A stretch of DNA of 32,000 nucleotides. Source: Acaryochloris marina S15 (GTDB lineage: Bacteria > Cyanobacteriota > Cyanobacteriia > Thermosynechococcales > Thermosynechococcaceae). Positions 7,245 through 25,386 of this stretch are shown here, one piece after another (positions within the stretch are counted from its first letter, which is position 1; each line of letters opens with the position of its first letter). Made by a program: the position numbers and the translations under genes. A model generated the notes under the pieces. That model was not told where the DNA came from, did no database searches, and saw nothing but the letters and a program-made list of their open reading frames with translations. The stretch spans positions 3,600,001 through 3,632,000 of the forward strand of contig NZ_CP064923.1 in assembly GCF_018336915.1 (NCBI RefSeq), read 5' to 3'.

Positions 7245-8195
7245 CTATTGCCCATCCTTCAGCCAGTAGGGGTCTTCCGTAAAGACAATGTCGATTTCAG
7301 GGAACGGATGTAAATCTGCGATCGCATCTGCAAACTTCTGCCTCAACTGGTCGAGTTCTTGCACCCGCTCAACCGCAAACTCAGCAGGGACGAGAAGCTG
7401 AATAAAGACATACAGCACTCGTCCTTGAACCATCATCTGCAAATGAAATCGATCGATGGGGTGTTTTTGACTGCGGGCAACTTGGGCAATGGTCTTGCGA
7501 ATCTCTCGGTCCAACTCGCTTTCTGGAGCAACGCCTAATAGTTGATTGACCCCTTCAAATACAGTGCGTAACGGTAGGGGGATGATAACCAGCACCAAAA
7601 GAGCGACTAGCAGCGGGTCAACGTAAGGGAGATAAATATTCCAAGCGGTGTCTTGCAGTAACATCGTCACCACAAAGGTCAAGGCAACTGCGCTACTAAT
7701 ACAGCCATCCACCGTCCAGTCTCGGGCTTCAACCTCTAGCAACGGTAAGTTCAACCGTCGGGCATAGCGATGCATCAAGATGGCAAAGGTAAAACACCCC
7801 ATTGTGGACAGGGTAGCATAGGCCAAGGCTAAGCCCACGACAAGATCTCGTCCTCCATGCAGCAAGTCTTCTATCGCCGATACGAAAGCAAACAAGCTGA
7901 CGGATAGAACAATAATGCCCTTAATCGTATTAATAAAAGGCTCAAATCCGTAATAGCCAAACTGGTAGCGACGACTGGGGCCTTCCTGGATCAGAGCTGC
8001 TACTTTGAGACTGACAAAGCTCATGGTCATGGTCATCAGGGAGTAAAACCCATCCAGCAAGATAGCTCCAGAATGGGTATATAGCCCAAACACCCCACCC
8101 AACACGGCAAAAATAGCCGATCCTATGATCGATAGAGTCAACGCCCATTGCTCTTGGGTGCCCTGATCCGGCGGTGTTGTTGTCGTAGCTATCAT
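7245..8195 (-). CDS. cation diffusion facilitator (CDF) family transporter
   Basis: 316 aa. Six-TM N-terminal domain plus a cytoplasmic C-terminal domain. The FGYYGFEPFINTIKGIIVLSVSLFAFVSAIEDLL segment is typical of CDF TM3. Lies 18 nt downstream of the methyltransferase gene on the same strand. Confidence 0.8.
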   Translation of the reverse strand: MIATTTTPPDQGTQEQWALTLSIIGSAIFAVLGGVFGLYTHSGAILLDGFYSLMTMTMSFVSLKVAALIQEGPSRRYQFGYYGFEPFINTIKGIIVLSVSLFAFVSAIEDLLHGGRDLVVGLALAYATLSTMGCFTFAILMHRYARRLNLPLLEVEARDWTVDGCISSAVALTFVVTMLLQDTAWNIYLPYVDPLLVALLVLVIIPLPLRTVFEGVNQLLGVAPESELDREIRKTIAQVARSQKHPIDRFHLQMMVQGRVLYVFIQLLVPAEFAVERVQELDQLRQKFADAIADLHPFPEIDIVFTEDPYWLKDGQ

Positions 8196-8213
8196 TTCAC
8201 TGCCTATCTGTGA

Positions 8214-9494
8214 CTAACGGGAGGACAACTGTTCATACCCTGGCCATTCCAGCCAAACAACTTCTTCTCGCAGTTGTTCGCCCGTGACACTGGATAAACG
8301 AGTTCGAAACAGCTCGACGCCCCGGACTTCATAGCCGAGTTCTTCAGCAATGGCGGCCAACAGCTCTCCTGTTCGAATTAAAACCTGGAGAAAAGAAGCC
8401 TGATCACCCACAACATAGGCCAGTTGGGCTCCCGGCTTTAGAATAGGGCGCAAGTTCGCAAAATGGCGCTTCATGCCCCCAAAGTAGAGGGCGGTGACCC
8501 TATGATATAACTTCTCAAACCCCGAATCTTTGTCCATTTCCAAGCGACGGCGTTCGATAGTCGCGGCGAGCTGAGTGACTTGCGGTGTGTTTGCCACCCA
8601 TAAATCATCCCGATCGGCGGCAAACGCATTGCGGGTATTCGAGCGGAGCAATGACTGTTTATAGGCTTTTAAGTCGGATGGATCCTGAAGAAACCCTAGC
8701 AGTACCGACTCTAACCGCGTGGTGCGGGTGTAGTCTTTTTCATTCGGATAGGGGGGAGAGGTAATCACCGCATCAATGGATTCTGGCTGAATCACTCGGG
8801 TTAAATCCCTGGCATCCTGGTGATGGCAAACCGTCGGCGGGGGGCAATCGATGCCACCTAAGTCTACGGCCATCGCCAAAACCTGCTGATGCCAAGCGGT
8901 TAAAACGGGAGCATCCTGTTTGCGCTGGCGGCTGATACCGACTTCTGGGGCAAATCGCAGGTTACTGGCGGTATGGACACTGGTATGGGCCAGGGCAAGC
9001 TGGAGGAGAGGTCGCAGTTGAGGATTCCGTTCGGCATCGATAGCATCCCGCAAGACCAGACATTTATGGAGGGGCAGATCGCCAATGGAGTTTTTGAGCA
9101 GCAGCGATTGTGCCTCTGGTGCCAGCTTTTTTAGGTGGGTTGTATTTTTAGGTGTAATGTCGCGGGAGAGGAGATAGCAAATCCGTTCTGCGGCTCCTCG
9201 CACTTGATCTGGATCAGCGGTCCAGGTGGTTTTGGTGCGGGAGGCAAACCAGGACATGGGAGTCGCCTCCACTCCCACAGCAGGAATCCCTTGTTTCTTG
9301 GCTTCTACAATCGTGGTCCCAGTGCCACAAAAAGGATCTAGGAGGGTGCTGTTCGCCGTTAGACCGAACTTATCAATATAGGTCCGGACCAAATGGGGTG
9401 GAAAGGACAAGATAAAGCGATACCAATCATGAAAACTGCGATCGCTCTCCTGCAAGCGATTCAGATTGAGATCCTTGGGATTAGAGGCGTCCAT
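8214..9494 (-). CDS. SAM-dependent N6/N4-type (SPPY motif) methyltransferase, DNA-methylase-like, no adjacent restriction gene
   Basis: 426 aa. SAM motif I LLDPFCGTGTTIVEAKKQG near the N-terminus and catalytic motif IV AVITSPPYPNEKDY about 190 aa later (alpha-type order). Its ATG overlaps the TAA of the upstream SDR by 1 nt (TAATG at 9492-9496). Confidence 0.75.
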   Translation of the reverse strand: MDASNPKDLNLNRLQESDRSFHDWYRFILSFPPHLVRTYIDKFGLTANSTLLDPFCGTGTTIVEAKKQGIPAVGVEATPMSWFASRTKTTWTADPDQVRGAAERICYLLSRDITPKNTTHLKKLAPEAQSLLLKNSIGDLPLHKCLVLRDAIDAERNPQLRPLLQLALAHTSVHTASNLRFAPEVGISRQRKQDAPVLTAWHQQVLAMAVDLGGIDCPPPTVCHHQDARDLTRVIQPESIDAVITSPPYPNEKDYTRTTRLESVLLGFLQDPSDLKAYKQSLLRSNTRNAFAADRDDLWVANTPQVTQLAATIERRRLEMDKDSGFEKLYHRVTALYFGGMKRHFANLRPILKPGAQLAYVVGDQASFLQVLIRTGELLAAIAEELGYEVRGVELFRTRLSSVTGEQLREEVVWLEWPGYEQLSSR

Positions 9495-10309
9495 TAAGAG
9501 GATTGCGATCTCGTCTGGGTAACAATCCGATCAAAATACCAGTTCAGTCCTGGAGCTAGAACGCTGTGTAGTTTGGCCAATAATCCCATTTCCAATCCAG
9601 GAGCCACCACAAACTGGTTATTTTTTACCCCTTGGACAATCTTTTGGGCCACATCTTCCGGCTGCCACATTTCCGCAGAGGCGGTAATGTTCTTCGTCTC
9701 TGGGGGTTTTGTTTTATTTTCCGCTTCCAGTTGGGGGGTATCCGTATCGGGAGGATAGACAATTGACAAGCCAATCCCAGTCCCTTTCAATTCTCCCCGC
9801 AAGGATTCAGCCAACCCCCGCAGTGCAAACTTGCTGGGGCTGTAAGGGGTATATCCAAAGAGCCCCACTAGTCCTGCCCCTGACGAAATCAACACAATAT
9901 GTCCCCGGTGACGCTCTTCCATTAGGGGCAAAACCGCTTTAACGGCATACAAAGTGCCAAAGTAATTGACCGCCATCGTTTGCTCAAAGACTTCGAGGGG
10001 AACATCTTGGAAATAACCTGGACGGGCCATACCTGCAGCGGTCATTAAAATATCGGGTGGTCCCAGTTGTGCAGTTGCAGTGTAAATAGCTTGGTTTAAG
10101 GCTTCTCGGTCAGCGACATCCGCCTCTAAAGCTAAAACTTGCTGGCCGGACTGGACTGCTTTAATGTCCTGAGCGGCTATCTCTAATTGACTAGGAGTGC
10201 GGGCAATCAGGGAAATATTTGCCCCATGACTGGCTAAGAGGCAAGCGGTAGCCTTACCAATACCACTCGATCCACCCGTAATCATGACATGGCGTTGATC
10301 AAAGTCCAT
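9494..10309 (-). CDS. SDR oxidoreductase, 3-ketodihydrosphingosine reductase (KDSR/Tsc10)-like
   Basis: The track ORF starts at TTG 10321; the ATG is at 10309 ([19 protein letters not shown]). Catalytic YSPSK. The C-terminal block [45 protein letters not shown] parallels human KDSR as I recall it ([43 protein letters not shown]). Confidence 0.8.
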   Translation of the reverse strand: [271 protein letters not shown]

Positions 10310-10362
10310 CCGTTGACTCAATAGTTGTCCTTAACGATAGAAATTACCCCGAACGCTCATCC

Positions 10363-11034
10363 CTATCGATGAACAATCTGTCGCAGCAGATAATTCCAGA
10401 TCTCCGGGATGGGGTGGCGAGGCTGACTCAGATGGGAAGTTTCTCCCGTAAAAGCCATGTTCCATTGTCCTTGCTCATGGACCAGTTTAGTTAACCCACA
10501 GGTGGGAAAGCGAACGGGAGAGCGCTGATCGACCAGTCCCCAAGCGGCTCCCTTGCCAATTAACTCATGGGTAACGATGAGCAGCGGCCCTGAAAAGGTC
10601 TCCACCAATTGCTGAAGCGCTTTTCCTGCCCGGGCAAGCGCCTCTGCTTCAGTTTCTGGGAACGGGGGAATGATATGGCTCCGGTAATGTCGATCAATTT
10701 GAGGGAAGCGATCGGCCATCTCACCAACAGGCAGCGGTTCTGGACAACGCTTAAACAGCTTGGAACTCATATGTTCTCCCAATCCAGCCTCCAGATGGAT
10801 GGGCAAATTCAAAGCCGTTGCTGTATGGACTGCCGTCACTACGGTTCGTAAAAAAGGAGAAGCAACGATATTCTCGATGGGTTCTGACTTAAGACACCGA
10901 GCCACATCCTGAGCCTCCACCACCCCTGCCGCTGAGAGACCTGGATCATGGGGACGTTCTGCCCGTTTGCGCCAGCCTAAGTCAGCATAATCTTGCCGAT
11001 GGCCATGGCGTGCAATCCAGACTACTTCAGACAT
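10363..11034 (-). CDS. histidine phosphatase (phosphoglycerate-mutase-like) family protein
   Basis: 223 aa. The N-terminal catalytic RHG motif (VWIARHGHRQD), the downstream ASPFLRTVVTA and the LLIVTHELIG second His are typical of branch-1 histidine phosphatases. Confidence 0.85.
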   Translation of the reverse strand: MSEVVWIARHGHRQDYADLGWRKRAERPHDPGLSAAGVVEAQDVARCLKSEPIENIVASPFLRTVVTAVHTATALNLPIHLEAGLGEHMSSKLFKRCPEPLPVGEMADRFPQIDRHYRSHIIPPFPETEAEALARAGKALQQLVETFSGPLLIVTHELIGKGAAWGLVDQRSPVRFPTCGLTKLVHEQGQWNMAFTGETSHLSQPRHPIPEIWNYLLRQIVHR

Positions 11035-11048
11035 ATTGGCACCCCAAA

Positions 11049-12383
11049 TTAGGCAGGGATTTCAGTCTCTATTTGAGACAGAGCAGAAGCAAGGGTCTCT
11101 ACGGTTTGGCGAATTTGGGCTTCCGTATGGGTGCTACTCAGGAAAAAGCGGAGTCGAGCCTCATTTTGGGGCACCACAGGGAAGGTCATAGGTTGGACAT
11201 TAATCCCTTGGTGAAAGAGCTGCTGGGATAGATGCAGCGCTTTGAGGGTATCGCCCACCATCACGGGAATAACAGCCGAACCTTGACTGGTCCCGGTGTT
11301 CAACCCTTTTTCTTTAGCTAAGTCTAGAAATAATTGAGCCCGAGCATGAAGCCGAGCCACGCGCTCTGGTTCTTGCTTTAGGACCTGTAGTGCCGCCAAA
11401 GACGCAGCCGTATTGGCAGGGGTAATGCCAATGCTATAGATAAAGCCGGGTGCCGTACATTTGAGGTATTCAATCAAAGGCTGGGAACCAGCAATATAGC
11501 CTCCACAGCTGGCAAAGGACTTACTGAGGGTGCCCATCCAAATATCAACGGTTTTAGGGTCAATACCAAAATGCTCACTAATACCCTGACCGTGCTCGCC
11601 CAAAACCCCAATCGAGTGGGCTTCATCCACCATTAGAAAAGCTTTATGGCGTTCTTTGAGTTCAATAAATTCGGGTAAATCGGGAATGTCGCCATCAGCA
11701 CTGTACACCCCTTCAATCACCACCAAAACTCTCTGATAGCGTTGCCGATGCTGCTTCAAGAGTCTTTCTAGATCTGCTGTATCATTATGGGCAAAGGACA
11801 TGGCCCGTGCACCTGACAGCATACATCCGAGAAAAATGCTGTTGTGGCTATAGGCATCGTAAAGAATCAGGTCATCACGGCCAAATAAATGTCCAATTGT
11901 GGTGACGTTGGTACCATGACCCGCGACGTAGAGAACGGCGTCATCTACACCAATAAAGTCTGCAATTCCTTGTTCAAGCTCTAAATGTAAGGCTTTCTCG
12001 CCAGAGACGGGGCGGCTAGCTGAGACTGAAGTGCCATAGCGATCAATGGCTTGTTTGGCGGTTTCTGAAACAGTTGGATGTCCGGCTAGCCCTAAATAGT
12101 TATAGCTGGAAAAATTGATCAGCTCTTTGCCATCAATGCAGGTTGTATCTCGAGCAATCCCTTCATGGACAGAGAAATAAGGGTTGCGGATATCATTCGC
12201 TTGCAGTTGGGCTTGCTGCTCTTTGAGCTGAAGATATTCAGGATAGAGATCGAAGCGATAATGTTCGGGAGGAATTTCGGGTTCAGATTCTGCTTTTTTC
12301 TGCAATAATTCCGCCAGCAATTCGCGTTTTTCTTCTGCGGAGAGATGATCCAGGGAATTAGAGGAATTACTCATGGGCAACAT
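11049..12383 (-). CDS. PLP-dependent alpha-oxoamine synthase, serine palmitoyltransferase-like
   Basis: 444 aa. NPYFSVHEGIARDTTCIDGKELINFSSYNYLGLAGHP, DEAHSIG and the PLP-lysine context GTLSKSFASCGGY (SPT-like GTFSKS rather than BioF GTFGKG). The start overlaps the carrier-protein stop by 17 nt, or 8 nt if Met4 is the start. Confidence 0.9.
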   Translation of the reverse strand: MLPMSNSSNSLDHLSAEEKRELLAELLQKKAESEPEIPPEHYRFDLYPEYLQLKEQQAQLQANDIRNPYFSVHEGIARDTTCIDGKELINFSSYNYLGLAGHPTVSETAKQAIDRYGTSVSASRPVSGEKALHLELEQGIADFIGVDDAVLYVAGHGTNVTTIGHLFGRDDLILYDAYSHNSIFLGCMLSGARAMSFAHNDTADLERLLKQHRQRYQRVLVVIEGVYSADGDIPDLPEFIELKERHKAFLMVDEAHSIGVLGEHGQGISEHFGIDPKTVDIWMGTLSKSFASCGGYIAGSQPLIEYLKCTAPGFIYSIGITPANTAASLAALQVLKQEPERVARLHARAQLFLDLAKEKGLNTGTSQGSAVIPVMVGDTLKALHLSQQLFHQGINVQPMTFPVVPQNEARLRFFLSSTHTEAQIRQTVETLASALSQIETEIPA

Positions 12384-12822
12384 TATGCTCTGACAACATC
12401 GCGTTCAGCAGGCCATCCACTTCATCGTCACTCAATACATCCAATTTGGACAGGAGTTCATCGGCATCTGCGGGTAATGCTGAAGTAGTGGGAGAACTGC
12501 CTTCATTATCGGTTACTAAGTGCTCTGATAATTCACGAATATTGGAATAATCTAGAACAAGCATGGGATCCAAACGGCGACCCAGAAAATGTTCCAGTTC
12601 ACCTGAAACATTGACGACTTCTACGGAGTTCATTCCGTAGTCAATGAAATCCACATCGATATCAATTTCCTCTGGACTCATTTCCAAAGAAGTTGCCAAG
12701 TGTTTTTTTAACCAGGCTTGAATGTCTGCCAATGTAGGGGAAGTCTGCAGGGGCGAAACAGTTCCCTGAGACTGTGCTTCCGCTACAGCGACCGTGCTTT
12801 GATAGTTATCCTGGATTGGCAT
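12367..12822 (-). CDS. free-standing acyl carrier protein with extended termini
   Basis: 151 aa. Phosphopantetheine-site region IDVDFIDYGMNSVEVVNVSGELEHFLGRRL (Ser within GMNS, a variant of G-x-D-S). About 40 extra aa at the N-terminus and about 50 at the C-terminus (DADELLSKLDVLSDDEVDGLLNAMLSE). Confidence 0.8.
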   Translation of the reverse strand: MPIQDNYQSTVAVAEAQSQGTVSPLQTSPTLADIQAWLKKHLATSLEMSPEEIDIDVDFIDYGMNSVEVVNVSGELEHFLGRRLDPMLVLDYSNIRELSEHLVTDNEGSSPTTSALPADADELLSKLDVLSDDEVDGLLNAMLSEHNVAHE

Positions 12823-12892
12823 ATTGTTTTTACTCTAATTGCTTAAACAACAGGTTAAACCGAATTGTGAATTTAAGTTAAAACTTCGGTTC

Positions 12893-12921
12893 ATCATAAA
12901 AGATTTATTTAACAGCAACAA
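12893..12921 (-). promoter_or_regulatory. candidate sigma70-type promoter for the ACP-AOS sub-operon
   Basis: Minus strand reads TTGTTG (12921-12916), a 17-nt spacer, then TATGAT (12898-12893), about 70 nt upstream of the ACP ATG and inside the only large gap (363 nt) of the array. Motif match only. Confidence 0.25.
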
Positions 12922-13185
12922 GGTGGCATGTAGAGATTACTCAATTGGCCCATTCTTTAAAGTCCTTAGAACTAAATGTTCTAGTCTCCTTAGTAATGCC
13001 GTTGATCAATCTAGCCCTTTGCCGTTATGGGAAAGTTATAACTTAGTCCAGATGGGGTGGGAGTGATCAAGGTTGCTTCAGTCGAAACTGCCTCATGTTA
13101 CGCATGGCTGATGTCTTTCCTGAGATAAGTGTGTAAGTTGAGACTGACTTTCTGCCTGAAAAAGTTCCAAGGTTTACTGTTTTTT

Positions 13186-15066
13186 TTAGGCGCGAGGCAT
13201 GCTCTTGGCTACACTCTCTAAGTCTCCCTCTAGAAATTTGGCTCTACAAGTAAACCGCTGAATTTTACCACTAGATGTCTTGGGAATACTGCCGGGTTTG
13301 AGCAGCAGCAGGGCATGAATCTGCAGGTCATGGTCTTTGGCAACCGCCCGACGAATTTGGGTGAGGATGTCTTTTTCGACGGCGGCAGGTTCTGAGTCTG
13401 AGGTCAGGGTTGTGGGAGGGACAAAATTATTGAGCTGAGCGGTTTGGGAGGATGGCTTCTTGCCATTTTTTTGATAGCGATTGATATAGTTCCGCTCCAA
13501 CTCCGCCACTACTACTAGCCGTTCTTCACCTGCTTCTGTAATCGAAAATGCAGCGGCACAATTGGGTCGAATACCGGGATAGCTTTGGACCACGGTCAAC
13601 TCAATGTCCTGGGGATAATGATTACGGCCGTTGATAATAATCACATCCTTTAAGCGACCCGTCACAAAAAGCTCGGAACCCACCAAAAAGCCATAGTCTC
13701 CAGTCCGTAGAAATGGGCCAGACCCGGTATCTGCTAAATGGGCCTGAAAGGTTTCTCCAGATACTTCTGATTGCCGCCAGTATCCCTGGGCAATGCTTTC
13801 GCCAGACACCCATATTTCGCCGACTTCTTCTGCTGAACATTGTTGGAGGGTTTCAGGATTGGCAATAACGATTTCCTGGCCTTGGAGGGCGGAGCCGCAA
13901 CCCACTAAGGTGCGGGCATCGGCATCTTTAGAATGGGCAGAGACAACTTGATGTTGTTCTAGGGCTGCGCCTTGGACTGTTTTTAGAGCGGGTTTGGCAT
14001 TTCTCTGTCCCCCGGAAACGATCAGGGTGGCTTCGGCAAGGCCATAGCAGGGGAAAAATGCTTCAGACCGAAATCCACAGGGGGCAAATTTGGTGGCAAA
14101 GTCTTCAAGGGTTTGAGCGCTGATGGGTTCTGCTCCGTTAAAGGCCACCCGCCAGGAGCTCAGGTCCAATCCCTGGAGCTGCTCTGGTTTGACTTTGCGC
14201 AAGCATAAATCATAGGCAAAATTTGGCCCACCGCTGGTAGTGGCTCGATAGCGAGAAATCGCTTGTAACCAGCGAATAGGACTTTGCAAGAACATAAAGG
14301 GGGACATCAACGCCACGGGAAACCCTCCATATAAAGGCTGCAAAATCCCACCGATCAAACCCATGTCGTGATAAGGCGGTAGCCAAATGACCCCTTGGCA
14401 TTGGGAACTATGCTCAAAGCATTGATGAATTAGAGATAGATTCTGTAAGAGATTGTCATGGGTGATCATCACCCCTTTTGGCGTTGCAGTTGATCCAGAG
14501 GTGTATTGAAGAAAGGCTAAATCTTGTCCTTGGGGATGAATCTCTTGCCAGGCTTGGCGGGGTTCGGTGACGCTGAGGCTATCGGTCGCCAGCCACTTGA
14601 GGGCGCTCAACTCTGCTGCATCAATCAGCTGTCGTTCGAGTTTCGACAGGATTTGGGACGTTGTCAGGGCAAAAATGGCTTGGGAATCAGCAATCACGCT
14701 TTGCAAGCGCATCAGGGAGCGATTGGGACGGGGTGGATAAATCGGGACTGCCGTGACGCCTGCATAGAGGCAGCCAAAGAAGGCGGCAACATATTCTAAT
14801 CCGGGCTGATACACCAATAGGGCTCGGTCACCCGGTTGGCAAGCAGACTGTAACGCGGCTGCGATCGCACGGGCCTTAGCATCCAACTCTGCATAAGTGA
14901 GATGGAGGGTTTCATCTTCACCATCGACTAAAAAGGTAAAGCCTTGATGATCTGGCTGGTGAGCCGCTCGATAGCGGAGTAAATCCACCAAACTTTCCAC
15001 CTTCGGTGGGCAAGTTCCTTCGACCTTGGCGTCCCAATTTGTTGTTTCAGCCACGTTATACTCCAT
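13186..15066 (-). CDS. fatty acyl-AMP ligase (FAAL)
   Basis: The track ORF (662 aa) extends into the upstream gene. The plausible start is ATG 15066 (MEYNVAETT...), 13 nt after the upstream stop. FAAL hallmarks: LVDLLRYRAAHQPD, FLQYTSGSTATPKGVMITHDNLL, GPNFAYDL, YGLAEATL, LRTGDYGF, PKTSSGKIQR. Confidence 0.9.
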   Translation of the reverse strand: MEYNVAETTNWDAKVEGTCPPKVESLVDLLRYRAAHQPDHQGFTFLVDGEDETLHLTYAELDAKARAIAAALQSACQPGDRALLVYQPGLEYVAAFFGCLYAGVTAVPIYPPRPNRSLMRLQSVIADSQAIFALTTSQILSKLERQLIDAAELSALKWLATDSLSVTEPRQAWQEIHPQGQDLAFLQYTSGSTATPKGVMITHDNLLQNLSLIHQCFEHSSQCQGVIWLPPYHDMGLIGGILQPLYGGFPVALMSPFMFLQSPIRWLQAISRYRATTSGGPNFAYDLCLRKVKPEQLQGLDLSSWRVAFNGAEPISAQTLEDFATKFAPCGFRSEAFFPCYGLAEATLIVSGGQRNAKPALKTVQGAALEQHQVVSAHSKDADARTLVGCGSALQGQEIVIANPETLQQCSAEEVGEIWVSGESIAQGYWRQSEVSGETFQAHLADTGSGPFLRTGDYGFLVGSELFVTGRLKDVIIINGRNHYPQDIELTVVQSYPGIRPNCAAAFSITEAGEERLVVVAELERNYINRYQKNGKKPSSQTAQLNNFVPPTTLTSDSEPAAVEKDILTQIRRAVAKDHDLQIHALLLLKPGSIPKTSSGKIQRFTCRAKFLEGDLESVAKSMPRA

Positions 15067-15079
15067 CCTGACTACAGGA

Positions 15080-15862
15080 TTATGAATTCGTTTTCGATTT
15101 GAATAGCCCTTGTAACCGCTGATCCCATTTCTTCTGATTGGTCTCTGCATCTTTGATATAGGGAGACCAAGCAATCAATTGGATAATGAACTGATTCAGT
15201 AGGGAAGCAGGGAATTTTAGAGGACGGACAATATCGACAAAAAGGACGACCCGAACTTCATCGGTATTATTCCAGGCCTCATGCTCGAAGGAGTCATCGA
15301 ACACTAGGCTTTTGCCTTCTTGCCAATGGCGCACATCATCTCCCACTCGAATCCCGCAGTCTGAAGCGGCCTCGGGAATGACCAGTCCCAGATGGTAGCG
15401 CAGAACGCCATTAAAGGGGCCACGATGGGGCGGTATTTGCTTTTGTGGCAGCAAAATAGAGAAAAAAGCAGTCTTTACACCGGGAATACTGACTAATAGT
15501 TTCGCCGTTTCCGGACAAAGACGACAGTTTTGCTCTGCCGTCACCCCGTAGGCATAAAAGAAAAAGGTTTTCCAGCGCTGATCATTCGTGATGTTGTACT
15601 GATCGGGGGAAATGTCTTGAAAATTAGGGAGGTCATCTCTATATTTAAGAATTTCATCTAATTCCTTACGGATAACCTGCCAATTATCCTCAAAAGTTTT
15701 TACCCATTCAAACTGAGCGGTATCAAAGAACGTCGAGTTTCCCACCAGGGAAGCAGACCGAATGATGCGCTCTAATTGACGCAACAGATTTTCACCTGCT
15801 TTTAGGGCGACCTCACGGTTCTTAGTTTTGAAATCGGTGTAAAACTGGCTCAATGCACTCAT
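15080..15862 (-). CDS. aspartyl/asparaginyl beta-hydroxylase (AspH/LpxO/OlsC) family Fe(II)/2OG dioxygenase, paralog 1
   Basis: 260 aa with ATG start. Conserved block KTAFFSILLPQKQIPPHRGPFNGVLRYHLGLVIP...HWQEGKSLVFDDSFEHEAWN, the two-His AspH-type core. No TM segment. Confidence 0.85.
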   Translation of the reverse strand: MSALSQFYTDFKTKNREVALKAGENLLRQLERIIRSASLVGNSTFFDTAQFEWVKTFEDNWQVIRKELDEILKYRDDLPNFQDISPDQYNITNDQRWKTFFFYAYGVTAEQNCRLCPETAKLLVSIPGVKTAFFSILLPQKQIPPHRGPFNGVLRYHLGLVIPEAASDCGIRVGDDVRHWQEGKSLVFDDSFEHEAWNNTDEVRVVLFVDIVRPLKFPASLLNQFIIQLIAWSPYIKDAETNQKKWDQRLQGLFKSKTNS

Positions 15863-15935
15863 AAGTTAGGGGGTAGAAATCAACAATTGGGCGCATTAAC
15901 ACTCCAGCCAATGTACACCATGATCTGTCTCGATG

Positions 15936-16682
15936 CTATTGGGACCCTTTAGCCGCTGATAACGCATCAAATCGCTGGTCCCATTTCTTTTGATTAGCGG
16001 CTGCACCTTGAATATAAGGGGACCAGGAAAAGAGCTGAATCACCGCTCGGTTCAACAGAGAGATCGGGAATTTAACCGGCCTCACCACATCCAAAAACAG
16101 GACGACACGTACACTATCCGCATCGTTCCAAGCCGTATGTTCAAAAGAGTCATCAAACACTAGGCTTTTACCTTCTTGCCAATGACGAATGTCCTTGCCG
16201 ACGCGAATGCCACATTGGTCCGTGGCCTCTGGCACCATCAACCCGAGGTGATAGCGCAGGACACCGTTATAGGGACCTCGATGGGGTGGGATGCGTTGGT
16301 GGGGTAGCAAGATCGAGAAAAAGGCTGTTTTTAACCCAGGGATTTGTTCAATCAACCGGGTGGTTTCTGGGCAGCGATCGCAGTTCTTTTCAGCCTTGAT
16401 GCCATAGGCATAAAAGGCAAACATTTTCCACTGGGTATCTTTAGTGAGTTCAGAGTCATATTCCACCAATTCTTCAAAATTGGGCAATGCCTCTTGGTAT
16501 TGGAGGACCTGTTCCAACTCTTGACGAATCGTTCGCCAATTCTTTTCCAAGAGAGAGACCCAACTAAACATATTGGGGTTAAAAAAGGTGTTGTGGCCCA
16601 CCAGGGACGAACGCGAAACCAACCCGCCAATATGTTTGCGCATTAAAGTTTCGAAAAATTCTTTCACGGGACTGTATTCCAA
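15936..16682 (-). CDS. AspH/LpxO family Fe(II)/2OG dioxygenase, paralog 2
   Basis: 248 aa from TTG 16682, or 235 aa from ATG 16643. KTAFFSILLPHQRIPPHRGPYNGVLRYHLGLMVP...HWQEGKSLVFDDSFEHTAWN. Clearly paralogous to 15080-15862. Confidence 0.85.
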   Translation of the reverse strand: MEYSPVKEFFETLMRKHIGGLVSRSSLVGHNTFFNPNMFSWVSLLEKNWRTIRQELEQVLQYQEALPNFEELVEYDSELTKDTQWKMFAFYAYGIKAEKNCDRCPETTRLIEQIPGLKTAFFSILLPHQRIPPHRGPYNGVLRYHLGLMVPEATDQCGIRVGKDIRHWQEGKSLVFDDSFEHTAWNDADSVRVVLFLDVVRPVKFPISLLNRAVIQLFSWSPYIQGAAANQKKWDQRFDALSAAKGSQ

Positions 16683-16711
16683 TGATGTGTTGACTATCGT
16701 AATAAATCCTT

Positions 16712-16742
16712 AATTCTGATGGCTGAGTGGGACATCAGAATT
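16712..16742 (-). other. intercistronic hairpin between hydroxylase paralogs 3 and 2
   Basis: 10-bp stem aattctgatg / catcagaatt with an 11-nt loop, starting 4 nt after the paralog-3 stop. Confidence 0.35.
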
Positions 16743-16745
16743 AGA

Positions 16746-17576
16746 TTAGTGAGATTTCATAATCGCACCTAGGCGTTGTTCCCACTGGTTCTGAAGCTTT
16801 TTAGCATCCTGAACAAAGGGCGACCAAGAAATTAAGCGAATAAGGGTTTTGTTGAGGACAGAGACGGGAAATTGAAGGGGTCGGATCACATCGACAATGA
16901 GTACGACCCGAACCTCGTTGCTATCGTTCCAGACCTCATGGGGAAATCGATCATCAAAGACTAAACCTTGCCCCTGCTGCCAATGACGAATTTGATCCGC
17001 TACCCGCAGACGGCATTGGGTTTCGGGTTGGGGCACTTTTAGGGCCAGATGGTACCGGATGACTCCCTTGAAAACCCCGCAATGCTCGGGAATATGTTTG
17101 TGGGGCAACAAGATGGAGAAGAAGGCCGTTTTCATGCCCGGAATGGATTCGATCAGTTGGCTGGTTTGAGGACAGTGAGCACAGTTTTGAGCCGCTTTTA
17201 CCCCAAAGGCATAGAAGAAAAAGGTCTTCCAGCGATCGTCTTGGGTGAGACGGTACTGATCTGGCGATAAATCTTGGAAGTTGGGTAGCTCATCCTGATA
17301 CTGGAGAATATCATCCAGTTCTTGGACAATGATGTGCCAGTTGTTTTCTAGCCTCTTGATCCAGGGGAACTGTTGAGCTTCGATAAAAGGCGTATTTCCC
17401 ACTAGGGAGTAGGACTCGATCAGACCTTCGAATCGCCGCAATAACTGCTCGGCTCCCTTTAAAAAGAGCTGACGACTTTTAGTCTGCCAATTTCCATCGT
17501 GTTGACTGAAAGCATTCATAGCACTGGAGGTTTGAGTAGACAATCTGTCCTTGGCTTTCACTAAGGATGACGACAT
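16746..17576 (-). CDS. AspH/LpxO family Fe(II)/2OG dioxygenase, paralog 3 (most divergent)
   Basis: 276 aa with ATG start. KTAFFSILLPHKHIPEHCGVFKGVIRYHLALKVP...HWQQGQGLVFDDRFPHEVWN. Longer N-terminus than the other two. Confidence 0.85.
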   Translation of the reverse strand: MSSSLVKAKDRLSTQTSSAMNAFSQHDGNWQTKSRQLFLKGAEQLLRRFEGLIESYSLVGNTPFIEAQQFPWIKRLENNWHIIVQELDDILQYQDELPNFQDLSPDQYRLTQDDRWKTFFFYAFGVKAAQNCAHCPQTSQLIESIPGMKTAFFSILLPHKHIPEHCGVFKGVIRYHLALKVPQPETQCRLRVADQIRHWQQGQGLVFDDRFPHEVWNDSNEVRVVLIVDVIRPLQFPVSVLNKTLIRLISWSPFVQDAKKLQNQWEQRLGAIMKSH

Positions 17577-17595
17577 CAGATCGGGGAACGTTAAA

Positions 17596-19389
17596 TTACG
17601 ATTGATTCGCGGCCATAGGGGCCATCAAATCTGAGATATTGCCTTGGGTTTCTTGTTTCCACTCAGCAACGGGTTGAAAACTGTTTTCTAAAAATTTAGT
17701 TCGACAAGCGCGACGCTGGATCTTGCCACTAGAGGTTTTGGGGATGGCACCCGGCTTGAGAAGCAACACGGCATAGACTTCAGCCATATGGTCCTCGGCA
17801 ATGGCCAAACGAATTGCTCCGATAACCTCTTCGACGGGTAAGCGACGGAAAAAGTTTCGTTCCACTTCATGGACAATCACCAGATGCTCTTCACCATTCA
17901 GGGGAATGGAAAAAGCAGCGCCATGGTTGGGCCGTAGGGCCGGATGGCATTGCTCAACGGTTTGTTCAATCAGCTGGGGATATTGGTTACGCCCCCAGAT
18001 AATCATCAAGTCTTTAATACGGCCCGTGATATAGACTTCACCATCCTGGACAAAGCCTAGGTCGCCGGTACGTAGAAAGGGTCCTTCGCCGGTATCAGCC
18101 AAGTGGGCCTGAAAGGTCTCGGCGGTGATGTCAGGTCTGTTCCAATAGCCTTTGCCGACGCCGGCCCCAGACACCCAAATCTCACCGACTTGGTTTTCCG
18201 CACATTTAGTTCGGGTATCGGGATTTGCGATCGCAACCTTATCCCCTAACAACATGCGGCCACAGCCGATAATCGCCTGGGCTTTGTCAGACTCCGGCTC
18301 TACAGACACCACTTTATTTTCGGCCAGGGCCGTACTGTCGAGATAGCGAATCACGGGTGGCTCTGACTTCAGGCCCCCGGAGATAAATAAGGTGGTTTCA
18401 GCCATGCCATAACAGGGATAAAAGGCTTCCCGGCGGAAGCCACAGGGGCCAAAAAAGTCCACAAACTTATCCAGGGTATCGGCCTTGATGGGCTCTGCCC
18501 CAGAAAAGGCTACTTCCCATTTGCTCAGATCCAGCTTGTCTCGCTGCTGCGGCTTTACCTTTTGGCACAGTAAATCATAGGCAAAGTTGGGTCCGCCGCT
18601 GGTGGTCGCCCCATATTTAGACACGGCTTCTAGCCACAAAATCGGTTTTTGGATCAGGGAAATCGGCGACATCAGGGTCACTGGGAACCCCCCATACAGG
18701 GGTTGAAGAACACCCCCCACCAGACCCATATCGTGAAATAGCGGTAGCCAAATCACGCCTTGACTCGTGTCTGAATGGCCAAAGCCCTCATAAATCAATT
18801 TAGAGTTATGGAGCATATTGCCGTGGGTGACCATCACCCCTTTCGGATCTCCAGTGGACCCCGAGGTGTATTGCAAAAAGGCCAACGTGTCCGGCTCTAA
18901 GTCGGGCTGCACCCAAGCAGAGGCCTGATCCATGGGCACGGTATCCGTGGCCAGCCAGGTCAACTTATTTAAGTACGGCGCTAAATCAGGATTCTTTTTT
19001 AGCTGGGTTTTGAGATGCTCCAAAAATCCTGCGGTGGAGATCAGTACAGTCGCTTCCGAGGCTCGGGCGCGGATTTGGAGTTTGGCAATGGCTGCTGATT
19101 TACGGGGAGGATTATCGGTGACGGCCACTACCCCGGCATAGAGACAGCCAAAAAAGGCAGACACAAATTCTAGTCCGGCATCGTAGGGATAGACGACCAG
19201 AACGTTGGTGCCACGGGCGGTCAGGGCTTGTATTGCGGCTGCGATCGCACGGGCTTGCAAATCCAAGGTGGCATAGGTGAGAGTGCCGGATTCAGTTTTA
19301 CCATCGGCTAAAAAGGTATAGGCATCTAGATCAGACTGGTGCTGAGACCGCTCTCGAAGCAAATCGACTAGAGTTGAAGGCTGGGTCAT
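17596..19389 (-). CDS. fatty acyl-AMP ligase (FAAL)
   Basis: 597 aa with ATG start. LVDLLRERSQHQSD, FLQYTSGSTGDPKGVMVTHGNML, GPNFAYDL, YGMAETTL, LRTGDLGF, PKTSSGKIQR. First gene of the array. Confidence 0.9.
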   Translation of the reverse strand: MTQPSTLVDLLRERSQHQSDLDAYTFLADGKTESGTLTYATLDLQARAIAAAIQALTARGTNVLVVYPYDAGLEFVSAFFGCLYAGVVAVTDNPPRKSAAIAKLQIRARASEATVLISTAGFLEHLKTQLKKNPDLAPYLNKLTWLATDTVPMDQASAWVQPDLEPDTLAFLQYTSGSTGDPKGVMVTHGNMLHNSKLIYEGFGHSDTSQGVIWLPLFHDMGLVGGVLQPLYGGFPVTLMSPISLIQKPILWLEAVSKYGATTSGGPNFAYDLLCQKVKPQQRDKLDLSKWEVAFSGAEPIKADTLDKFVDFFGPCGFRREAFYPCYGMAETTLFISGGLKSEPPVIRYLDSTALAENKVVSVEPESDKAQAIIGCGRMLLGDKVAIANPDTRTKCAENQVGEIWVSGAGVGKGYWNRPDITAETFQAHLADTGEGPFLRTGDLGFVQDGEVYITGRIKDLMIIWGRNQYPQLIEQTVEQCHPALRPNHGAAFSIPLNGEEHLVIVHEVERNFFRRLPVEEVIGAIRLAIAEDHMAEVYAVLLLKPGAIPKTSSGKIQRRACRTKFLENSFQPVAEWKQETQGNISDLMAPMAANQS

Positions 19390-19480
19390 AGGGGCAATAT
19401 CCGCAATAGCAAAATCCTAAGTTTGAGAACATAAACCCGCTAGTACTTACATCACGACAAAGGCGGATCTGCATCACATT

Positions 19481-19510
19481 ACTGTAGTTGAGGGATGCTT
19501 TAGACTTCAA
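19481..19510 (-). promoter_or_regulatory. candidate promoter of the lipid array
   Basis: Minus strand reads TTGAAG (19510-19505), an 18-nt spacer, then TACAGT (19486-19481), about 90 nt upstream of the FAAL ATG. Motif match only. Confidence 0.2.
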
Positions 19511-20177
19511 GTATTCTTGCGTGCACTAGCCGTTTCTTACTCTTAATCAGACATAGTATTAGCCCTCTAGTTCTTACCTAACGATGGATTTGCCGATCAA
19601 CTGTGACGGTCAATTTTGTTGCATATTCGATCCGAAAATGCCATTTCGCCTGTCCATACTAGCGGTAGTTATGAGTCTGTTGATTGCCCACTCACCATCT
19701 AGCTTTCTGAGGTAAATACCTAGATTTCGCCCCTTAGATATTAGGCGTCTTAGACCCGGTTCTTAAGACAAATCACCACTCTAAAGGGATAATAGCTACT
19801 ACATGCATGAAGAATTAAGGCTCTAAGATTTTGTTTCTCTTATAGGAATGCACCAGAAAAGCGTTTACTAAGCTTGGTTGGAGAAGGTCAATCTACCAGT
19901 CAATAAATGAACCTCATGGTCCCTATTTACCTGTTTCTTGGTCATTTCTTTTACCCCACTCATTAATCACTCCAAAAATCCAAGCAAGCAGAGTTAGAGA
20001 GACTAAGAACAATAATTATTTCCAAGAAAAAATAGCCGACAATCGTAGCTATTGCGAACAGAGCCTCTGCCTAGAGCATAAGACCCAACAGTGGAGAAGG
20101 AGCCTAACCATGCAGTGTTTAAAGATGTTATTACCCAATTCAACCTCTAATGCCAAACTTGATCACACTACAAACTG

Positions 20178-21191
20178 ATGAATAAGTTTTGGCAACACAA
20201 AACGATTTTTCGCCTCCTGCTGCTGTTCTGCATTGGGCTAGGACTCGTTTTTCTCTTTCAAAAAATCAATCTCCAAGGTCGTGATCTGCTAGATGCATTT
20301 CAGCGGTTTAGCATCGAATCCCTATTTCTAATGTTAGGGGTTACTTTGGTACAAATGGCCTTTCAGGTAACTCGTCTCTGGGTACTTTGTCCTCAATCGG
20401 CAGGAGTGAGTTGGGCCCAAGCCGCAAATACTTACGTATCGGGCCAATTTATTGGCAATTTTGTTCTCAGCCAAGCGGGGCATGCCGTTAAAATTGCCCT
20501 GTTGCGCAAGGATAAAGATACCAAGGGCCGAAAAATTGATGCAGCTGAGGCTACAGCCGTCATCCTAGTGGATAAAATGCTAGATGTCGGCATTCTGGTC
20601 ACCCTAGCTGTTCTATCAGCATTACAAGTCTCCGTCGGTTTGCCCCAAGTCGATTGGTGGGAAAAAGGTATTATTTTGCTGATCGGCATCCCTTTTCTAG
20701 GGGTCGCATTGTGGGCCATCCTCCGAGGTTTGCGCCAACGGTTTCCAAAATTACGTCAATGGTTCCGAAAGTTTAAGATCGGACTAGCTGTAATTCGTAA
20801 TCCTCTCCAAATTCGTAATGCTGCGGTCATGGACTTGGGAGACTGGTTTACGGAATGTTTACTGTTGCAAATGCTATGCATGGCTCAAGGTCATGTCCTA
20901 TCTTTACCCCAACTTTTGATCTGCTTGTTTGTTCTGAACTTGGGGCTGACGGTGCCTACGACTATGGCCAACCTGGGTACCTACGAAGCTGCCCTAGCCT
21001 TTTCTCTCAATGGTATGGGGGTGCCCCTGGCGCAAAGTGTGGTGATTGCAACGATGTTTCATGCTTATCAACTATTCAGTTTGCCTGTGTGGACGTTTAT
21101 CCAAAAGTTGAGTTATCGCTTCTCACCCAAGTTAGACTCGACACTGTCCATTCCCATTCCTCAAAAACGCACAAAAGTTACCTCCAAGTAA
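20178..21191 (+). CDS. MprF-TM / lysyl-phosphatidylglycerol-synthase transmembrane-region (UPF0104, flippase-like) family protein
   Basis: 337 aa, about 8 TM segments. The N-terminal pattern FRLLLLFCIGLGLVFLFQKINLQGRDLLDAFQRFSIESLFLMLGVTLVQMAFQVTRLWVL fits the LPG_synthase_TM family layout. Divergent from the FAAL array. Confidence 0.6.
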   Translation: MNKFWQHKTIFRLLLLFCIGLGLVFLFQKINLQGRDLLDAFQRFSIESLFLMLGVTLVQMAFQVTRLWVLCPQSAGVSWAQAANTYVSGQFIGNFVLSQAGHAVKIALLRKDKDTKGRKIDAAEATAVILVDKMLDVGILVTLAVLSALQVSVGLPQVDWWEKGIILLIGIPFLGVALWAILRGLRQRFPKLRQWFRKFKIGLAVIRNPLQIRNAAVMDLGDWFTECLLLQMLCMAQGHVLSLPQLLICLFVLNLGLTVPTTMANLGTYEAALAFSLNGMGVPLAQSVVIATMFHAYQLFSLPVWTFIQKLSYRFSPKLDSTLSIPIPQKRTKVTSK

Positions 21192-21634
21192 CTGATTTAT
21201 AGGCATATGCCCCTTCTTTTTCAGTAAAAGGACTGATGGGTTGAGTCAAGCGGTTGTACAATCGCAAAATTGAATATAAACGAGCTACCGTAGTCTTGAT
21301 ATTTAAAAGGCTAACGTCTAGATAAGTTAAAACTCTTATCCTTTCATCAGCTTAAACCTGTACTTCTTCGTAAAAGTAGTTGAAGCTAGGGGATAAACCC
21401 AAACTGATATTAAAGCAGGTATAAAATGAGAGGCTATCTGAAACTAAGCTTTACCCATAAATCCTAAAACCCTCTCTAAGCAAGGCTTAAACTTTTCTGG
21501 AAAGTCTCATCTAGAAGTGTTAATCTAATAATTTAGCATCTATATTTTTATACTGACTGAGTTTTATATTTTCATAAAATAAATATCAAAACAAGATCAA
21601 AGGATAAAAATAATCTTATTAAATCAACAGAAAG

Positions 21635-23770: not shown

Positions 23771-24817
23771 TTAGATGATAGAAGCAGCAACTTGTGCTTC
23801 CGATGCACCGCCCTGAACAATTGCGATTAAGTCACCACCAATAGAAATGCTAACTCCAAAAGGTAATGGACCAATGGTACTACCGATGCTGAAAACAGTA
23901 CCTGGTGATAGCTGAATCTTATCTAGTTGACCAAATTTAAAGTCTTGGATAAGGGCATAATCAGCATCCCCTTCACCCAGGTAATAGTTTTTAGGACCGC
24001 TACCTGCAGGTTGGCCGAGGATAGTACCATCATCTCCAAGAACGAAGACATCAGCTCCACGACCACCTCTTAGTTCATCAATTTCACCATCACCAAACCC
24101 AAAGGGGTCGATAAAGGGATCGACGCCAACGAGGACATCATCCCCACCACCACCAGATAGGGTGTCGTTCGAGAAACCACCGCCAACAAGGGCATCATTT
24201 CCTCTCCCCCCTCTGATTTCATCATCGCCGATACTTCCGAAAATAACGTCGTCACCAGCGCCACCATCTAAGAAATCATTACCATCTTCAGCATCAATGA
24301 GGTCGTTACCAGCACCACCGAAAATGCGATCATTCCCACTGCCACCGAAAAAGCGATCATTCCCAGCATCTCCGCGAATCCAGTCTGCGCCATCGCCACC
24401 GTTGAGAATATCGTCACCAGATCCGCCGCGAATATTGTCATCGCCAGCGTCTCCAAAGATATTATCTGCACCTAATCCTCCGGCAATAAAGTCATTACCG
24501 CCTCCGCCAAATAGGTTATCGTTTCCTGCGTCGCCTCGGATATCATCGTTTCCACCTTCACCAAAGATTAGGTCATTCCCATTGCCACCCCTGATAAAGT
24601 CATCATCTCCAGCAGCAGGATCAAAGACCCTAGAATCGCCAAAGATGACGTCATCACCATCTTGTCCAAAAAGCCGATCATTCCCAGCGCCTCCGATGAT
24701 GATATCTACACCAGCACCACCACGGATCAAGTCATTGCCATTAAGACCAAAGATGCCATCACCATCAGCAGTTCCTGTAATGAAATCAGCGAGATTAGAA
24801 CCAACAATAGTAGCCAT
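23771..24817 (-). CDS. RTX / hemolysin-type calcium-binding repeat protein
   Basis: 348 aa. More than 20 tandem nonapeptides of the GGxGxDxUx type (GGAGNDRLFGQDGDDVIFG, GGNGNDLIFGEGGNDDIRGDAGNDNLFGGGGNDFIAG...). No N-terminal signal peptide, as expected for type-I-secreted proteins. Confidence 0.9.
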   Translation of the reverse strand: MATIVGSNLADFITGTADGDGIFGLNGNDLIRGGAGVDIIIGGAGNDRLFGQDGDDVIFGDSRVFDPAAGDDDFIRGGNGNDLIFGEGGNDDIRGDAGNDNLFGGGGNDFIAGGLGADNIFGDAGDDNIRGGSGDDILNGGDGADWIRGDAGNDRFFGGSGNDRIFGGAGNDLIDAEDGNDFLDGGAGDDVIFGSIGDDEIRGGRGNDALVGGGFSNDTLSGGGGDDVLVGVDPFIDPFGFGDGEIDELRGGRGADVFVLGDDGTILGQPAGSGPKNYYLGEGDADYALIQDFKFGQLDKIQLSPGTVFSIGSTIGPLPFGVSISIGGDLIAIVQGGASEAQVAASII

Positions 24818-25386
24818 GTGTTTACCTCATTAAAGCTAATACTTCAACGTCAAAAAATAAAACTAATCTAAATGCAGAAATCTTAGTGCCACAAATTAAA
24901 CATCATCTTTTGATAATGTTTAACGACACTACTTTGTAGTGCCCATATATAAAAAACGCTCAATAATAACGCTCCAACTCAAGAGGGCGTATTAGAAAGT
25001 TTTGCCGTGAAATAAATATCACGGTTGCACAGCACGCTATAAATTACATACCTAAAAAATAAAGCAAGCAATCCATGAGCTATACATCAAATCAATAAAA
25101 GATTCGTCAACGAACCTCTTTATTTCTGAACAAATCAATTGATATGCGTTTTAGATTAATTTTGCGAGGCACGTTTAATTTAATCTGAATTAATCCTACA
25201 TGAGGGATGTGATTTTGTATATATATTTTTTTAATATTTCAATTTCATCTATGCAAAATATCTAAATTAATTACTCTGAAAATAAAATAATCTAATAATC
25301 CTTAGGCACAATAAAAATTTAGAATAATATGACATATCAATAATATATAAGCGATCACACTATATAAGTATGATTTTAAATTTGAT

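Follow-up and report, generated by a model that had tools for sequence, protein, structure and literature searches.

Three diverged OlsC-like dioxygenase paralogs between two fatty acyl-AMP ligase-like genes of Acaryochloris marina, candidate tailoring hydroxylases of an amino lipid

Among the AspH/LpxO-type Fe(II)/2-oxoglutarate (2OG) dioxygenases of the family PF05118, AspH hydroxylates the carbon adjoining a side-chain carboxyl. For the members LpxO, OlsC and OlsD, the target is in each case C-2 of an acyl chain (PMC12971839). The bacterial sphingolipid core of Caulobacter and the Rhodobacteria comprises an acyl-ACP synthetase, a dedicated acyl carrier protein (ACP), the serine palmitoyltransferase Spt, a reductase and the bacterial ceramide synthase bCerS (PMC9386255). 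Very-long-chain sphinganines are made by SgaAB, a pair of polyketide synthase (PKS) and alpha-oxoamine synthase (AOS) (PMC12134224). The ceramide acyl hydroxylase of Caulobacter is the DesA-type enzyme CCNA_00202, which belongs to a different family from PF05118 (PMC11324152). From cyanobacteria only two ceramides have been reported, and one tested gene, in Nostoc, proved to be a BioF (PMC8895605). Here we describe three adjacent PF05118 genes, named Hyd1, Hyd2 and Hyd3, in a stretch of 32,000 nucleotides of the genome of Acaryochloris marina S15 (contig NZ_CP064923.1, positions 3,600,001 to 3,632,000; the whole stretch is called the window below). They lie between two genes for proteins resembling fatty acyl-AMP ligases (FAALs), in a cluster that also encodes an ACP, an AOS and a short-chain dehydrogenase/reductase (SDR). 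The reading that we prefer, by a modest degree of confidence, is that the Hyds are active, non-redundant tailoring hydroxylases of the FAAL/AOS-derived lipid of this cluster. The three genes, in window coordinates, are as follows.

16746-17576, minus strand: Hyd3, PF05118 dioxygenase paralog 3, 276 aa (PF05118 E 3e-52, 177 bits).
15936-16682, minus strand: Hyd2, PF05118 dioxygenase paralog 2, 248 aa from a TTG start, 243 aa by gene callers (PF05118 E 8e-57, 192 bits).
15080-15862, minus strand: Hyd1, PF05118 dioxygenase paralog 1, 260 aa (PF05118 E 4e-59, 199 bits).

The original prediction, made from the letters of this DNA, had described three consecutive open reading frames (ORFs) of 260, 248 and 276 aa between two FAALs and assigned them to the AspH/LpxO-type dioxygenases. 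All three are present on the minus strand, the flanking proteins are FAAL-like, and each paralog matches the whole PF05118 (Asp_Arg_Hydrox) profile, positions 1-157 of 157, at 177-199 bits against a cut-off of 22.6. Their relation to the curated bacterial families was judged by NCBIfam profile scores. The OlsC model (NF052565) is the top curated match for all three and is colinear with them over its 259 positions; it scores 294 (Hyd1), 266 (Hyd2) and 252 bits (Hyd3), under the equivalog cut-off of 450. The LpxO model (NF033391) gives 146, 134 and 115 bits, respectively, against an equivalog cut-off of 500, and its match is confined to the central part of the profile (about 34-238 of 297). Judged by these scores, the Hyds are OlsC-like in architecture, yet not orthologs of OlsC or LpxO. 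The membership in the AspH/LpxO-type family that had been claimed for them thus stands, with OlsC, and not LpxO or AspH, as the closest curated relative.

No transmembrane (TM) helix was found in any of the three copies, as had been predicted: the maximal 19-residue Kyte-Doolittle mean is 1.42-1.56, compared with about 2.5 for the MatE, cation-efflux (CDF) and PF03706 membrane proteins of the same window. Since the closest curated family is OlsC, solubility is expected and not unusual. OlsC itself, the hydroxylase of Rhizobium tropici that acts at position 2 of the ester-linked acyl chain of ornithine lipid, shares with the Hyds a length of about 250-280 aa, the lack of a TM segment and the PF05118 Fe(II)/2OG fold; in contrast to OlsC, the Hyds are encoded in a FAAL-ACP-AOS-SDR cluster, in three diverged copies and with no ornithine-lipid synthase genes nearby. 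LpxO, the lipid A 2-hydroxylase of Salmonella, is of the same Pfam family and is likewise a lipid acyl-chain hydroxylase, but the Hyds differ from it in having no TM helices, no lipid A context and only a partial match to its profile. The three proteins are therefore best described as predicted soluble or peripherally membrane-associated Fe(II)/2OG dioxygenases of the OlsC-like branch of PF05118.

The residues that correspond to AspH S668, H679, G681, R688, H690, H725 and R735 do not vary in any of the three ortholog groups. We take the two His to be the iron ligands, the Gly to stand at the usual carboxylate position, and the Ser and Arg to bind 2OG. With these AspH-type catalytic residues all in place, the three Hyds look catalytically competent. 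Meanwhile, the positions of AspH K666 and R686, presumably substrate-binding residues, are occupied by Phe and Val in the Hyds, and there is no tetratricopeptide repeat (TPR) domain, the 248-276 aa being accounted for by the oxygenase domain and terminal helices. A lipid-type substrate is favoured over a protein-type one, because OlsC is the best model, the TPR domain is lacking, and K666 and R686 are replaced. Human AspH (PDB 5apa, 5jqy) is the only relative with a solved structure (E 1e-27, about 30% identity), and we know of no structure for a lipid-acting PF05118 member. An AlphaFold2 model of Hyd1 (pLDDT 88.5, pTM 0.86) has a double-stranded beta-helix core, a long N-terminal helix at residues 2-37 that is strongly amphipathic at 19-36, and two C-terminal helices. 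Its top structural match is the oxygenase domain of human AspH (target-normalised TM-score 0.76, 31% identity), from which the Hyds differ by the missing TPR, the extra N-terminal amphipathic and C-terminal helices, the change of K666 and R686 to Phe and Val, and the lipid context.

The paralogs diverged long ago. Amino acid identity is 59% for Hyd1-Hyd2, 57% for Hyd1-Hyd3 and 50% for Hyd2-Hyd3, and at the nucleotide level the pairs are 57-62% identical, with a longest exact shared run of 11-14 nt. The long shared blocks that had been quoted for them (KTAFFSILLP..., LVFDD.F.H..WN and RVVL..D..RP) are seen in the paralog alignment, but residues identical between paralogs use the same codon at only 40-43% of positions. 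Gene conversion or recent duplication as the source of the blocks is ruled out by the nucleotide identity, the short runs and the codon differences. Since exact nucleotide matches are short and codons differ at identical residues, the blocks appear to be kept by selection on the protein. Against their orthologs, dN/dS is 0.018-0.035 for Hyd1, 0.036-0.044 for Hyd2 and 0.065-0.104 for Hyd3, comparable to the values of the cluster neighbours (0.05-0.065 for the FAAL upstream of Hyd3, FAAL_A; about 0.04 for the FAAL downstream of Hyd1, FAAL_B; 0.03 for the AOS). These low ratios mark strong purifying selection on every Hyd.

In a neighbour-joining tree of 163 representatives with human AspH as the root, all three Hyds fall inside a mostly cyanobacterial clade (bootstrap 72). 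Within it, the orthologs of Hyd1 and Hyd2 are sisters in an Acaryochloris-only clade (bootstrap 85), and those of Hyd3 form a separate Acaryochloris clade (bootstrap 100) whose placement is unsettled. As Hyd1 and Hyd2 are sisters and Hyd3 stands apart, an older split would have given Hyd3 and a later tandem duplication Hyd1 and Hyd2. The triplication with divergence that had been proposed was therefore not a single event.

Copy-specific columns, conserved within each ortholog group and differing between groups, are given here in Hyd1 numbering. In Hyd2 the loop 82-91, which aligns with AspH 612-620, has been rebuilt (EELVEYDxE instead of the family-wide QDISPDQY), and M99, A101 and T195 are specific to this copy, T195 coming directly after the second iron-binding His. 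Hyd3 carries C147 and V149 on either side of the first iron-binding His, and also A159, R170, G185 and R191; P145, N151 and E193 are common to Hyd1 and Hyd2. The difference PEHCGVFKG versus PPHRGP(F/Y)NG around the first His had been taken as a divergence of paralog 3. It is present in the alignment, but the PEH...K and P-H of Hyd3 are majority states in the wider family and only the Cys and Val near the first His are Hyd3-specific; by this comparison, the derived pair around the first His is Hyd1 and Hyd2 (PPH..N). The copy-specific changes near the active site fit a divergence in substrate or position, without saying which. Taken with the old divergence and the low dN/dS of each copy, these conserved substitutions favour the non-redundancy that had been suggested for the three copies.

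At least five genomes or metagenome-assembled genomes (MAGs) of Acaryochloris share the triplet in synteny. Proteins identical to those of the window occur on two Logan contigs, and the proteins of the locus are 87-97% identical to those of A. marina MBIC11017 (NC_009925, about 697-718 kb; locus L004). The order FAAL_A-Hyd3-Hyd2-Hyd1-FAAL_B-ACP-AOS-histidine phosphatase-SDR is kept in L004 and in the loci L003 and L005, and two MAGs of more distant strains show it as well, each on a pair of contigs (L034+L007 and L010+L029). Because this gene order recurs in A. marina MBIC11017 and several MAGs, the triplet is not a matter of chance or an assembly artefact. In the MAG Acaryochloris sp. IP29b_bin.137 (L006, 2444-3740), a deletion fuses the first approximately 60 codons of Hyd3 to the last approximately 30 of Hyd2, and Hyd1 is the only intact copy between both FAALs; either the two genes were lost naturally or the assembly has collapsed at this point.

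The other genes of the cluster are all co-directional with the Hyds.

17596-19389, minus strand: FAAL_A, FAAL-like adenylating enzyme, 597 aa (Pfam AMP-binding and DIP2-like AMP domain).
13186-15054, minus strand: FAAL_B, FAAL-like enzyme, 622 aa by gene callers, ORF to 15174 (Pfam AMP-binding, DIP2-like and Mug62 domains).
12367-12822, minus strand: stand-alone ACP, 151 aa (Pfam PP-binding, E 3e-14).
11049-12383, minus strand: AOS of the SPT/BioF/KBL family, 444 aa (Pfam Aminotran_1_2).
10363-11034, minus strand: histidine phosphatase superfamily protein, 223 aa (Pfam His_Phos_1, E 6e-19).
9494-10321, minus strand: SDR, candidate 3-keto reductase and last conserved gene of the cluster, 275 aa (Pfam adh_short and KR).

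FAAL_A, Hyd3, Hyd2, Hyd1 and FAAL_B are separated by gaps of 19, about 63, 73 and 25 nt, respectively. A gap of 363 nt follows between FAAL_B and the ACP gene, and the latter overlaps the start of the AOS gene by 17 nt. For FAAL_A and FAAL_B, which are 51% identical, the top NCBIfam matches are all FAAL/FadD32 families or loading families of nonribosomal peptide synthetases (NRPSs) and PKSs, below cut-off (e.g. 457 and 403 versus 775 bits). The AOS likewise stays below every NCBIfam cut-off (bioF 372 versus 426 bits, SPT models 239-351 versus 500-670, KBL 329 versus 460). Its closest PDB match is the SPT of Sphingobacterium (3a2b/8guh, 1.7e-71), with KBL and BioF close behind.

The wider distribution of the Hyd clade was surveyed by a scan of GTDB species genomes, which gave 78 loci, followed by tblastn with the cluster proteins of the window. 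At 23 loci of Actinomycetota (Acidimicrobiia and 'Actinomycetes' MAGs; within L013-L045, L063 and L064, e.g. L018 10001-12850), a single Hyd, 56-60% identical, is convergent with an AOS whose top NCBIfam models are SPT equivalogs (378 and 354 bits, below cut-off). This AOS is followed by a conserved 300-aa protein with a YDERVEDG motif and no Pfam or NCBIfam match, which may be an acyltransferase; the neighbours beyond this three-gene module are unrelated. In a Stellaceae MAG (L037, 10-15635), the genes encode, in this order, a PKS (AT-DH-cMT-ER-KR-ACP), an AOS 56% identical to that of the window, a 389-aa protein with no Pfam match, an SDR, the Hyd, an FA_desaturase/Lipid_DES protein resembling the sphingolipid delta-4 desaturase, and three GT2/GT21 glycosyltransferases; this looks like a complete glycosphingolipid cluster of SgaAB type, its PKS and AOS having the SgaAB architecture. 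In Salinicola (L021), the Hyd comes directly after Metallophos, CDP-OH_P_transf, DAGK_cat and Tam41-like genes, a context of ceramide-kinase type, and a homolog of the 389-aa protein is encoded as well. This 389-aa protein, which we take to be a candidate ceramide synthase (bCerS), served as query for a tblastn search of the window, in which nothing was found.

Among other cyanobacteria, the Hyd homolog is often a singleton in an unrelated or glycosyltransferase context. In two unrelated metagenomic cyanobacterial lineages (L084, L087), a single Hyd is directly followed by a FAAL that is 58-62% identical to FAAL_B and only 50-51% to FAAL_A. As these pairs match FAAL_B, Hyd1-FAAL_B appears to be the Acaryochloris version of a pre-existing two-gene module. 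In addition, a Hyd homolog follows a FAAL-initiated NRPS in Nostoc, and in the gammaproteobacterium Exilibacterium a Hyd is followed by genes for an aminotransferase, a TauD-like oxygenase and a FAAL-NRPS. As a whole, the clade keeps company with enzymes for fatty-acid activation or for the condensation of fatty acids with amino acids. The original prediction had linked the paralogs to a lipid scaffold of sphingoid type, and the ACP, SPT-like AOS and SDR of the cluster agree with it, as does the tie of the clade to such genes in three other phylogenetic groups.

A Sphingobacteriaceae MAG (L080, 8346-10639) likewise has three PF05118 paralogs side by side, of which two share a strand and the third is divergent. 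They are distant from those of the window (35-42% identity, about 110 bits with the OlsC model) and represent an independent multiplication of PF05118; relatives of this lineage include the Sphingobacterium with the solved SPT (3a2b/8guh).

Like the Caulobacter core, the Acaryochloris cluster brings together a dedicated ACP and, next to it, an SPT-like AOS with an enzyme for acyl activation and a candidate reductase. It differs in having FAALs instead of an acyl-ACP synthetase or a PKS, and the search with the 389-aa protein found no bCerS-like gene in the window; moreover, its AOS stays below the SPT equivalog cut-offs and its SDR may not be of CerR type.

In the pathway that we infer, a FAAL would adenylate a fatty acid and load it on the dedicated ACP. 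The SPT-like AOS would then condense the acyl-ACP with an amino acid to a 3-keto amino lipid; serine is the most likely amino acid, because of the similarity of the AOS and the contexts of the clade elsewhere. The SDR would reduce the 3-ketone, giving a sphinganine-like amino alcohol, and the Hyds would add hydroxyl groups, each paralog with its own substrate or position. A hydroxyl at C-4, as in a phytosphingosine-type base, would result if the Hyds acted on C-2 of the acyl-ACP or on C-4 of the 3-keto intermediate; in addition or instead, a second acyl chain, for which the other FAAL would be the activating enzyme, would be hydroxylated at C-2 and end up as an alpha-hydroxy N-acyl group. The family precedent points to hydroxylation alpha to a carbonyl, since LpxO, OlsC and OlsD act at C-2 and AspH on the carbon next to a carboxyl. 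Tailoring of a FAAL/AOS-derived amino lipid as such is well supported by the context, while the substrate, the amino acid used, the order of the steps and the regiochemistry are put forward here as the probable course only.

The original prediction went further and proposed three regiospecific hydroxylations, one by each enzyme and each at another carbon of a single lipid scaffold, to yield a polyol of the fumonisin, sphingofungin or phytosphingosine kind. We regard this as a tentative alternative. It agrees with three diverged copies that are each under selection, that differ beside the iron ligands and in the loop matching AspH 612-620, and that share an operon-like block with the scaffold-building genes. 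However, the characterised lipid-acting members LpxO, OlsC and OlsD all hydroxylate acyl C-2 (PMC12971839), no PF05118 member is known to act on remote unactivated carbons, and two FAALs suggest two acyl substrates, not one. By the family precedent, hydroxylation alpha to a carbonyl, on different acyl substrates or at different stages, is thus at least as likely as three positions along a single chain. It is equally a possible, though doubtful, solution that all three copies carry out the same reaction, acyl 2-hydroxylation, and are specialised by substrate or condition, for instance by the chain length or carrier of the two FAAL products, by different expression conditions or as a hetero-oligomer, so that the product would bear at most one or two hydroxyls. 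The C-2 precedent speaks for this, as do the stand-alone Hyd-FAAL pairs of other cyanobacteria, of whose FAAL FAAL_B is the ortholog, the sister relationship of Hyd1 and Hyd2, and the existence of a lineage with Hyd1 alone (L006); the conserved copy-specific changes close to the active site do not fit it well. Simple dosage redundancy is argued against by the retention of three copies together since before the sampled Acaryochloris lineages diverged, with synonymous sites saturated.

That the Hyds are housekeeping hydroxylases of membrane lipids, OlsC/LpxO-like enzymes with ornithine lipid, lipid A or some other lipid of the envelope as substrate, with little information in their position between the FAALs, appears improbable to us. 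OlsC is indeed the best curated match, and in many cyanobacteria a single homolog stands among unrelated or glycosyltransferase genes; but the scores are far under the equivalog cut-offs of both OlsC and LpxO, the window ORFs scanned include none for ornithine lipid or lipid A (no acyltransferase of the olsBA/olsF kind), ornithine lipids have not been identified in cyanobacteria (PMC12971839), and the adjacency to FAAL or AOS genes is conserved in several phyla. Asp/Asn hydroxylation of a peptide or protein, as by AspH or the lantibiotic hydroxylase CinX, would be in line with the fold and catalytic residues common with human AspH. We nevertheless consider it very unlikely, given proteins with no TPR or other substrate-docking domain, a window with no precursor-peptide, lanthipeptide or NRPS gene, hydrophobic residues in place of AspH K666 and R686, and lipid hydroxylases as the closest curated families.

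Several points also weigh against the reading that we prefer, namely non-redundant tailoring of the FAAL/AOS-derived lipid, which is drawn from sequence and genomic context. Since many cyanobacterial homologs are singletons with no AOS nearby, the clade is not limited to AOS pathways. The absence of both Hyd2 and Hyd3 from L006 means that they are dispensable in at least one lineage, or that this contig is mis-assembled. The AOS might use an amino acid other than serine, because all equivalog cut-offs are missed and the BioF and KBL scores are near those of SPT; the enzyme could in principle be a BioF instead of an SPT-type enzyme. The histidine phosphatase, whose gene is present in L004, L007 and L029 and absent from L008, is without an assigned role in the pathway, a phosphorylated amino-acid substrate or product being one possibility. 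Finally, with no recognisable ceramide synthase in the window, the role of FAAL_A is unexplained.

Two non-coding regions of the cluster are conserved, and a membrane protein gene lies beyond FAAL_A.

12823-12954, minus strand: conserved non-coding block directly upstream of the ACP gene (cross-lineage alignment).
19390-19670, minus strand: conserved non-coding blocks upstream of FAAL_A (alignment).
20178-21191, plus strand: divergent LPG_synthase_TM (flippase-like) family membrane protein (Pfam PF03706, E 1e-23).

The block upstream of the ACP gene, of about 130 nt, is near-invariant across Acaryochloris lineages whose synonymous sites are saturated, whereas the rest of the 363-bp gap is unalignable. 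It contains a perfect inverted repeat (AACCGAA-N20-TTCGGTT) and a possible -35/-10 pair (TTGCTG N17 TATGAT); the predicted hairpin is weak and its stability not significant (z -1.6). The block is probably an internal promoter or a 5' leader, and its position upstream of the ACP gene suggests that ACP-AOS-histidine phosphatase-SDR is regulated as a unit of its own. Four Acaryochloris genomes share long invariant blocks over the 280 nt that precede the FAAL_A ATG, and the distal spacer is unalignable. These blocks, probably a promoter or leader, hold two octamers, CGCTAGTA and TACTAGCG, which are complementary to each other and lie about 200 nt from one another. A scan of the whole window against Rfam gave no family match, block 12823-12954 included, and a promoter/terminator scan of 8000-21500 was uninformative, promoters being not above shuffled expectation. 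The PF03706 gene keeps its position beside FAAL_A in L003-L005, L010 and L034, that is, in every genome with this flank available, and its divergent flippase-like product may belong to the cluster.

At the other end, a 426-aa permuted (S)PPY amino-methyltransferase of DNA/RNA type (DPFCGTGTT ... ITSPPYP; 8214-9494, minus strand) follows the SDR, its ATG overlapping the SDR stop by 1 nt. The gene is present in L004 and L007 and absent at the same position in L008 and L029, where the SDR is directly followed by unrelated conserved neighbours. As a pathway methyltransferase it was left out of the cluster, being of DNA/RNA type and absent from the L008 and L029 clusters. It is probably an inserted orphan DNA/RNA methylase, although N-methylation of an amino lipid by it is possible. 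The CDF gene after it was also left out, as it is missing from the L029 cluster. The boundary of the cluster was set at the SDR, since the methyltransferase is missing in L029 and L008 and the CDF transporter in L029. Elsewhere in the window, a 457-aa FAD_binding_4 protein with a Cytokin-bind domain of cytokinin dehydrogenase type (E 1e-13) is encoded at 419-1792 (minus strand), which is unusual for a cyanobacterium. A 348-aa protein at 23771-24817 (minus strand) consists mostly of RTX calcium-binding nonapeptide repeats (10 HemolysinCabind stretches), and an ORF of 223 aa that runs opposite to it (24162-24833) probably represents a shadow ORF.

A literature search for the Acaryochloris cluster, for FAAL together with an oxoamine synthase and ACP, or for PF05118 in a sphingolipid pathway found no paper. 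The enzyme family and its chemistry are known, while the cluster, the occurrence of PF05118 in a sphingolipid-type pathway and a genetic basis for cyanobacterial sphingoid lipids were not found described. It is conceivable, though we advance it with reserve, that the cluster is the first genetically defined pathway for a cyanobacterial sphingoid-type amino lipid, in which PF05118 enzymes, characterised to date solely as acyl 2-hydroxylases for lipid A and ornithine lipid, would have been taken over in several copies as hydroxylases of long-chain bases or ceramides, with a tri-hydroxylated polyol base as product; the clade found with SPT-like AOSs in Actinomycetota and Alphaproteobacteria would then be a widespread, unrecognised family of sphingolipid hydroxylases. 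Next to nothing is known of the genes behind sphingolipid-type lipids in cyanobacteria, and the cluster, present in the cultured A. marina MBIC11017, would offer a compact and tractable handle on them. It would also bear on the question of which enzymes hydroxylate bacterial sphingolipids, known only as the DesA type in Caulobacter (PMC11324152). In addition, three close 2OG oxygenases would form a natural set for studying the evolution of substrate or regio-specificity.

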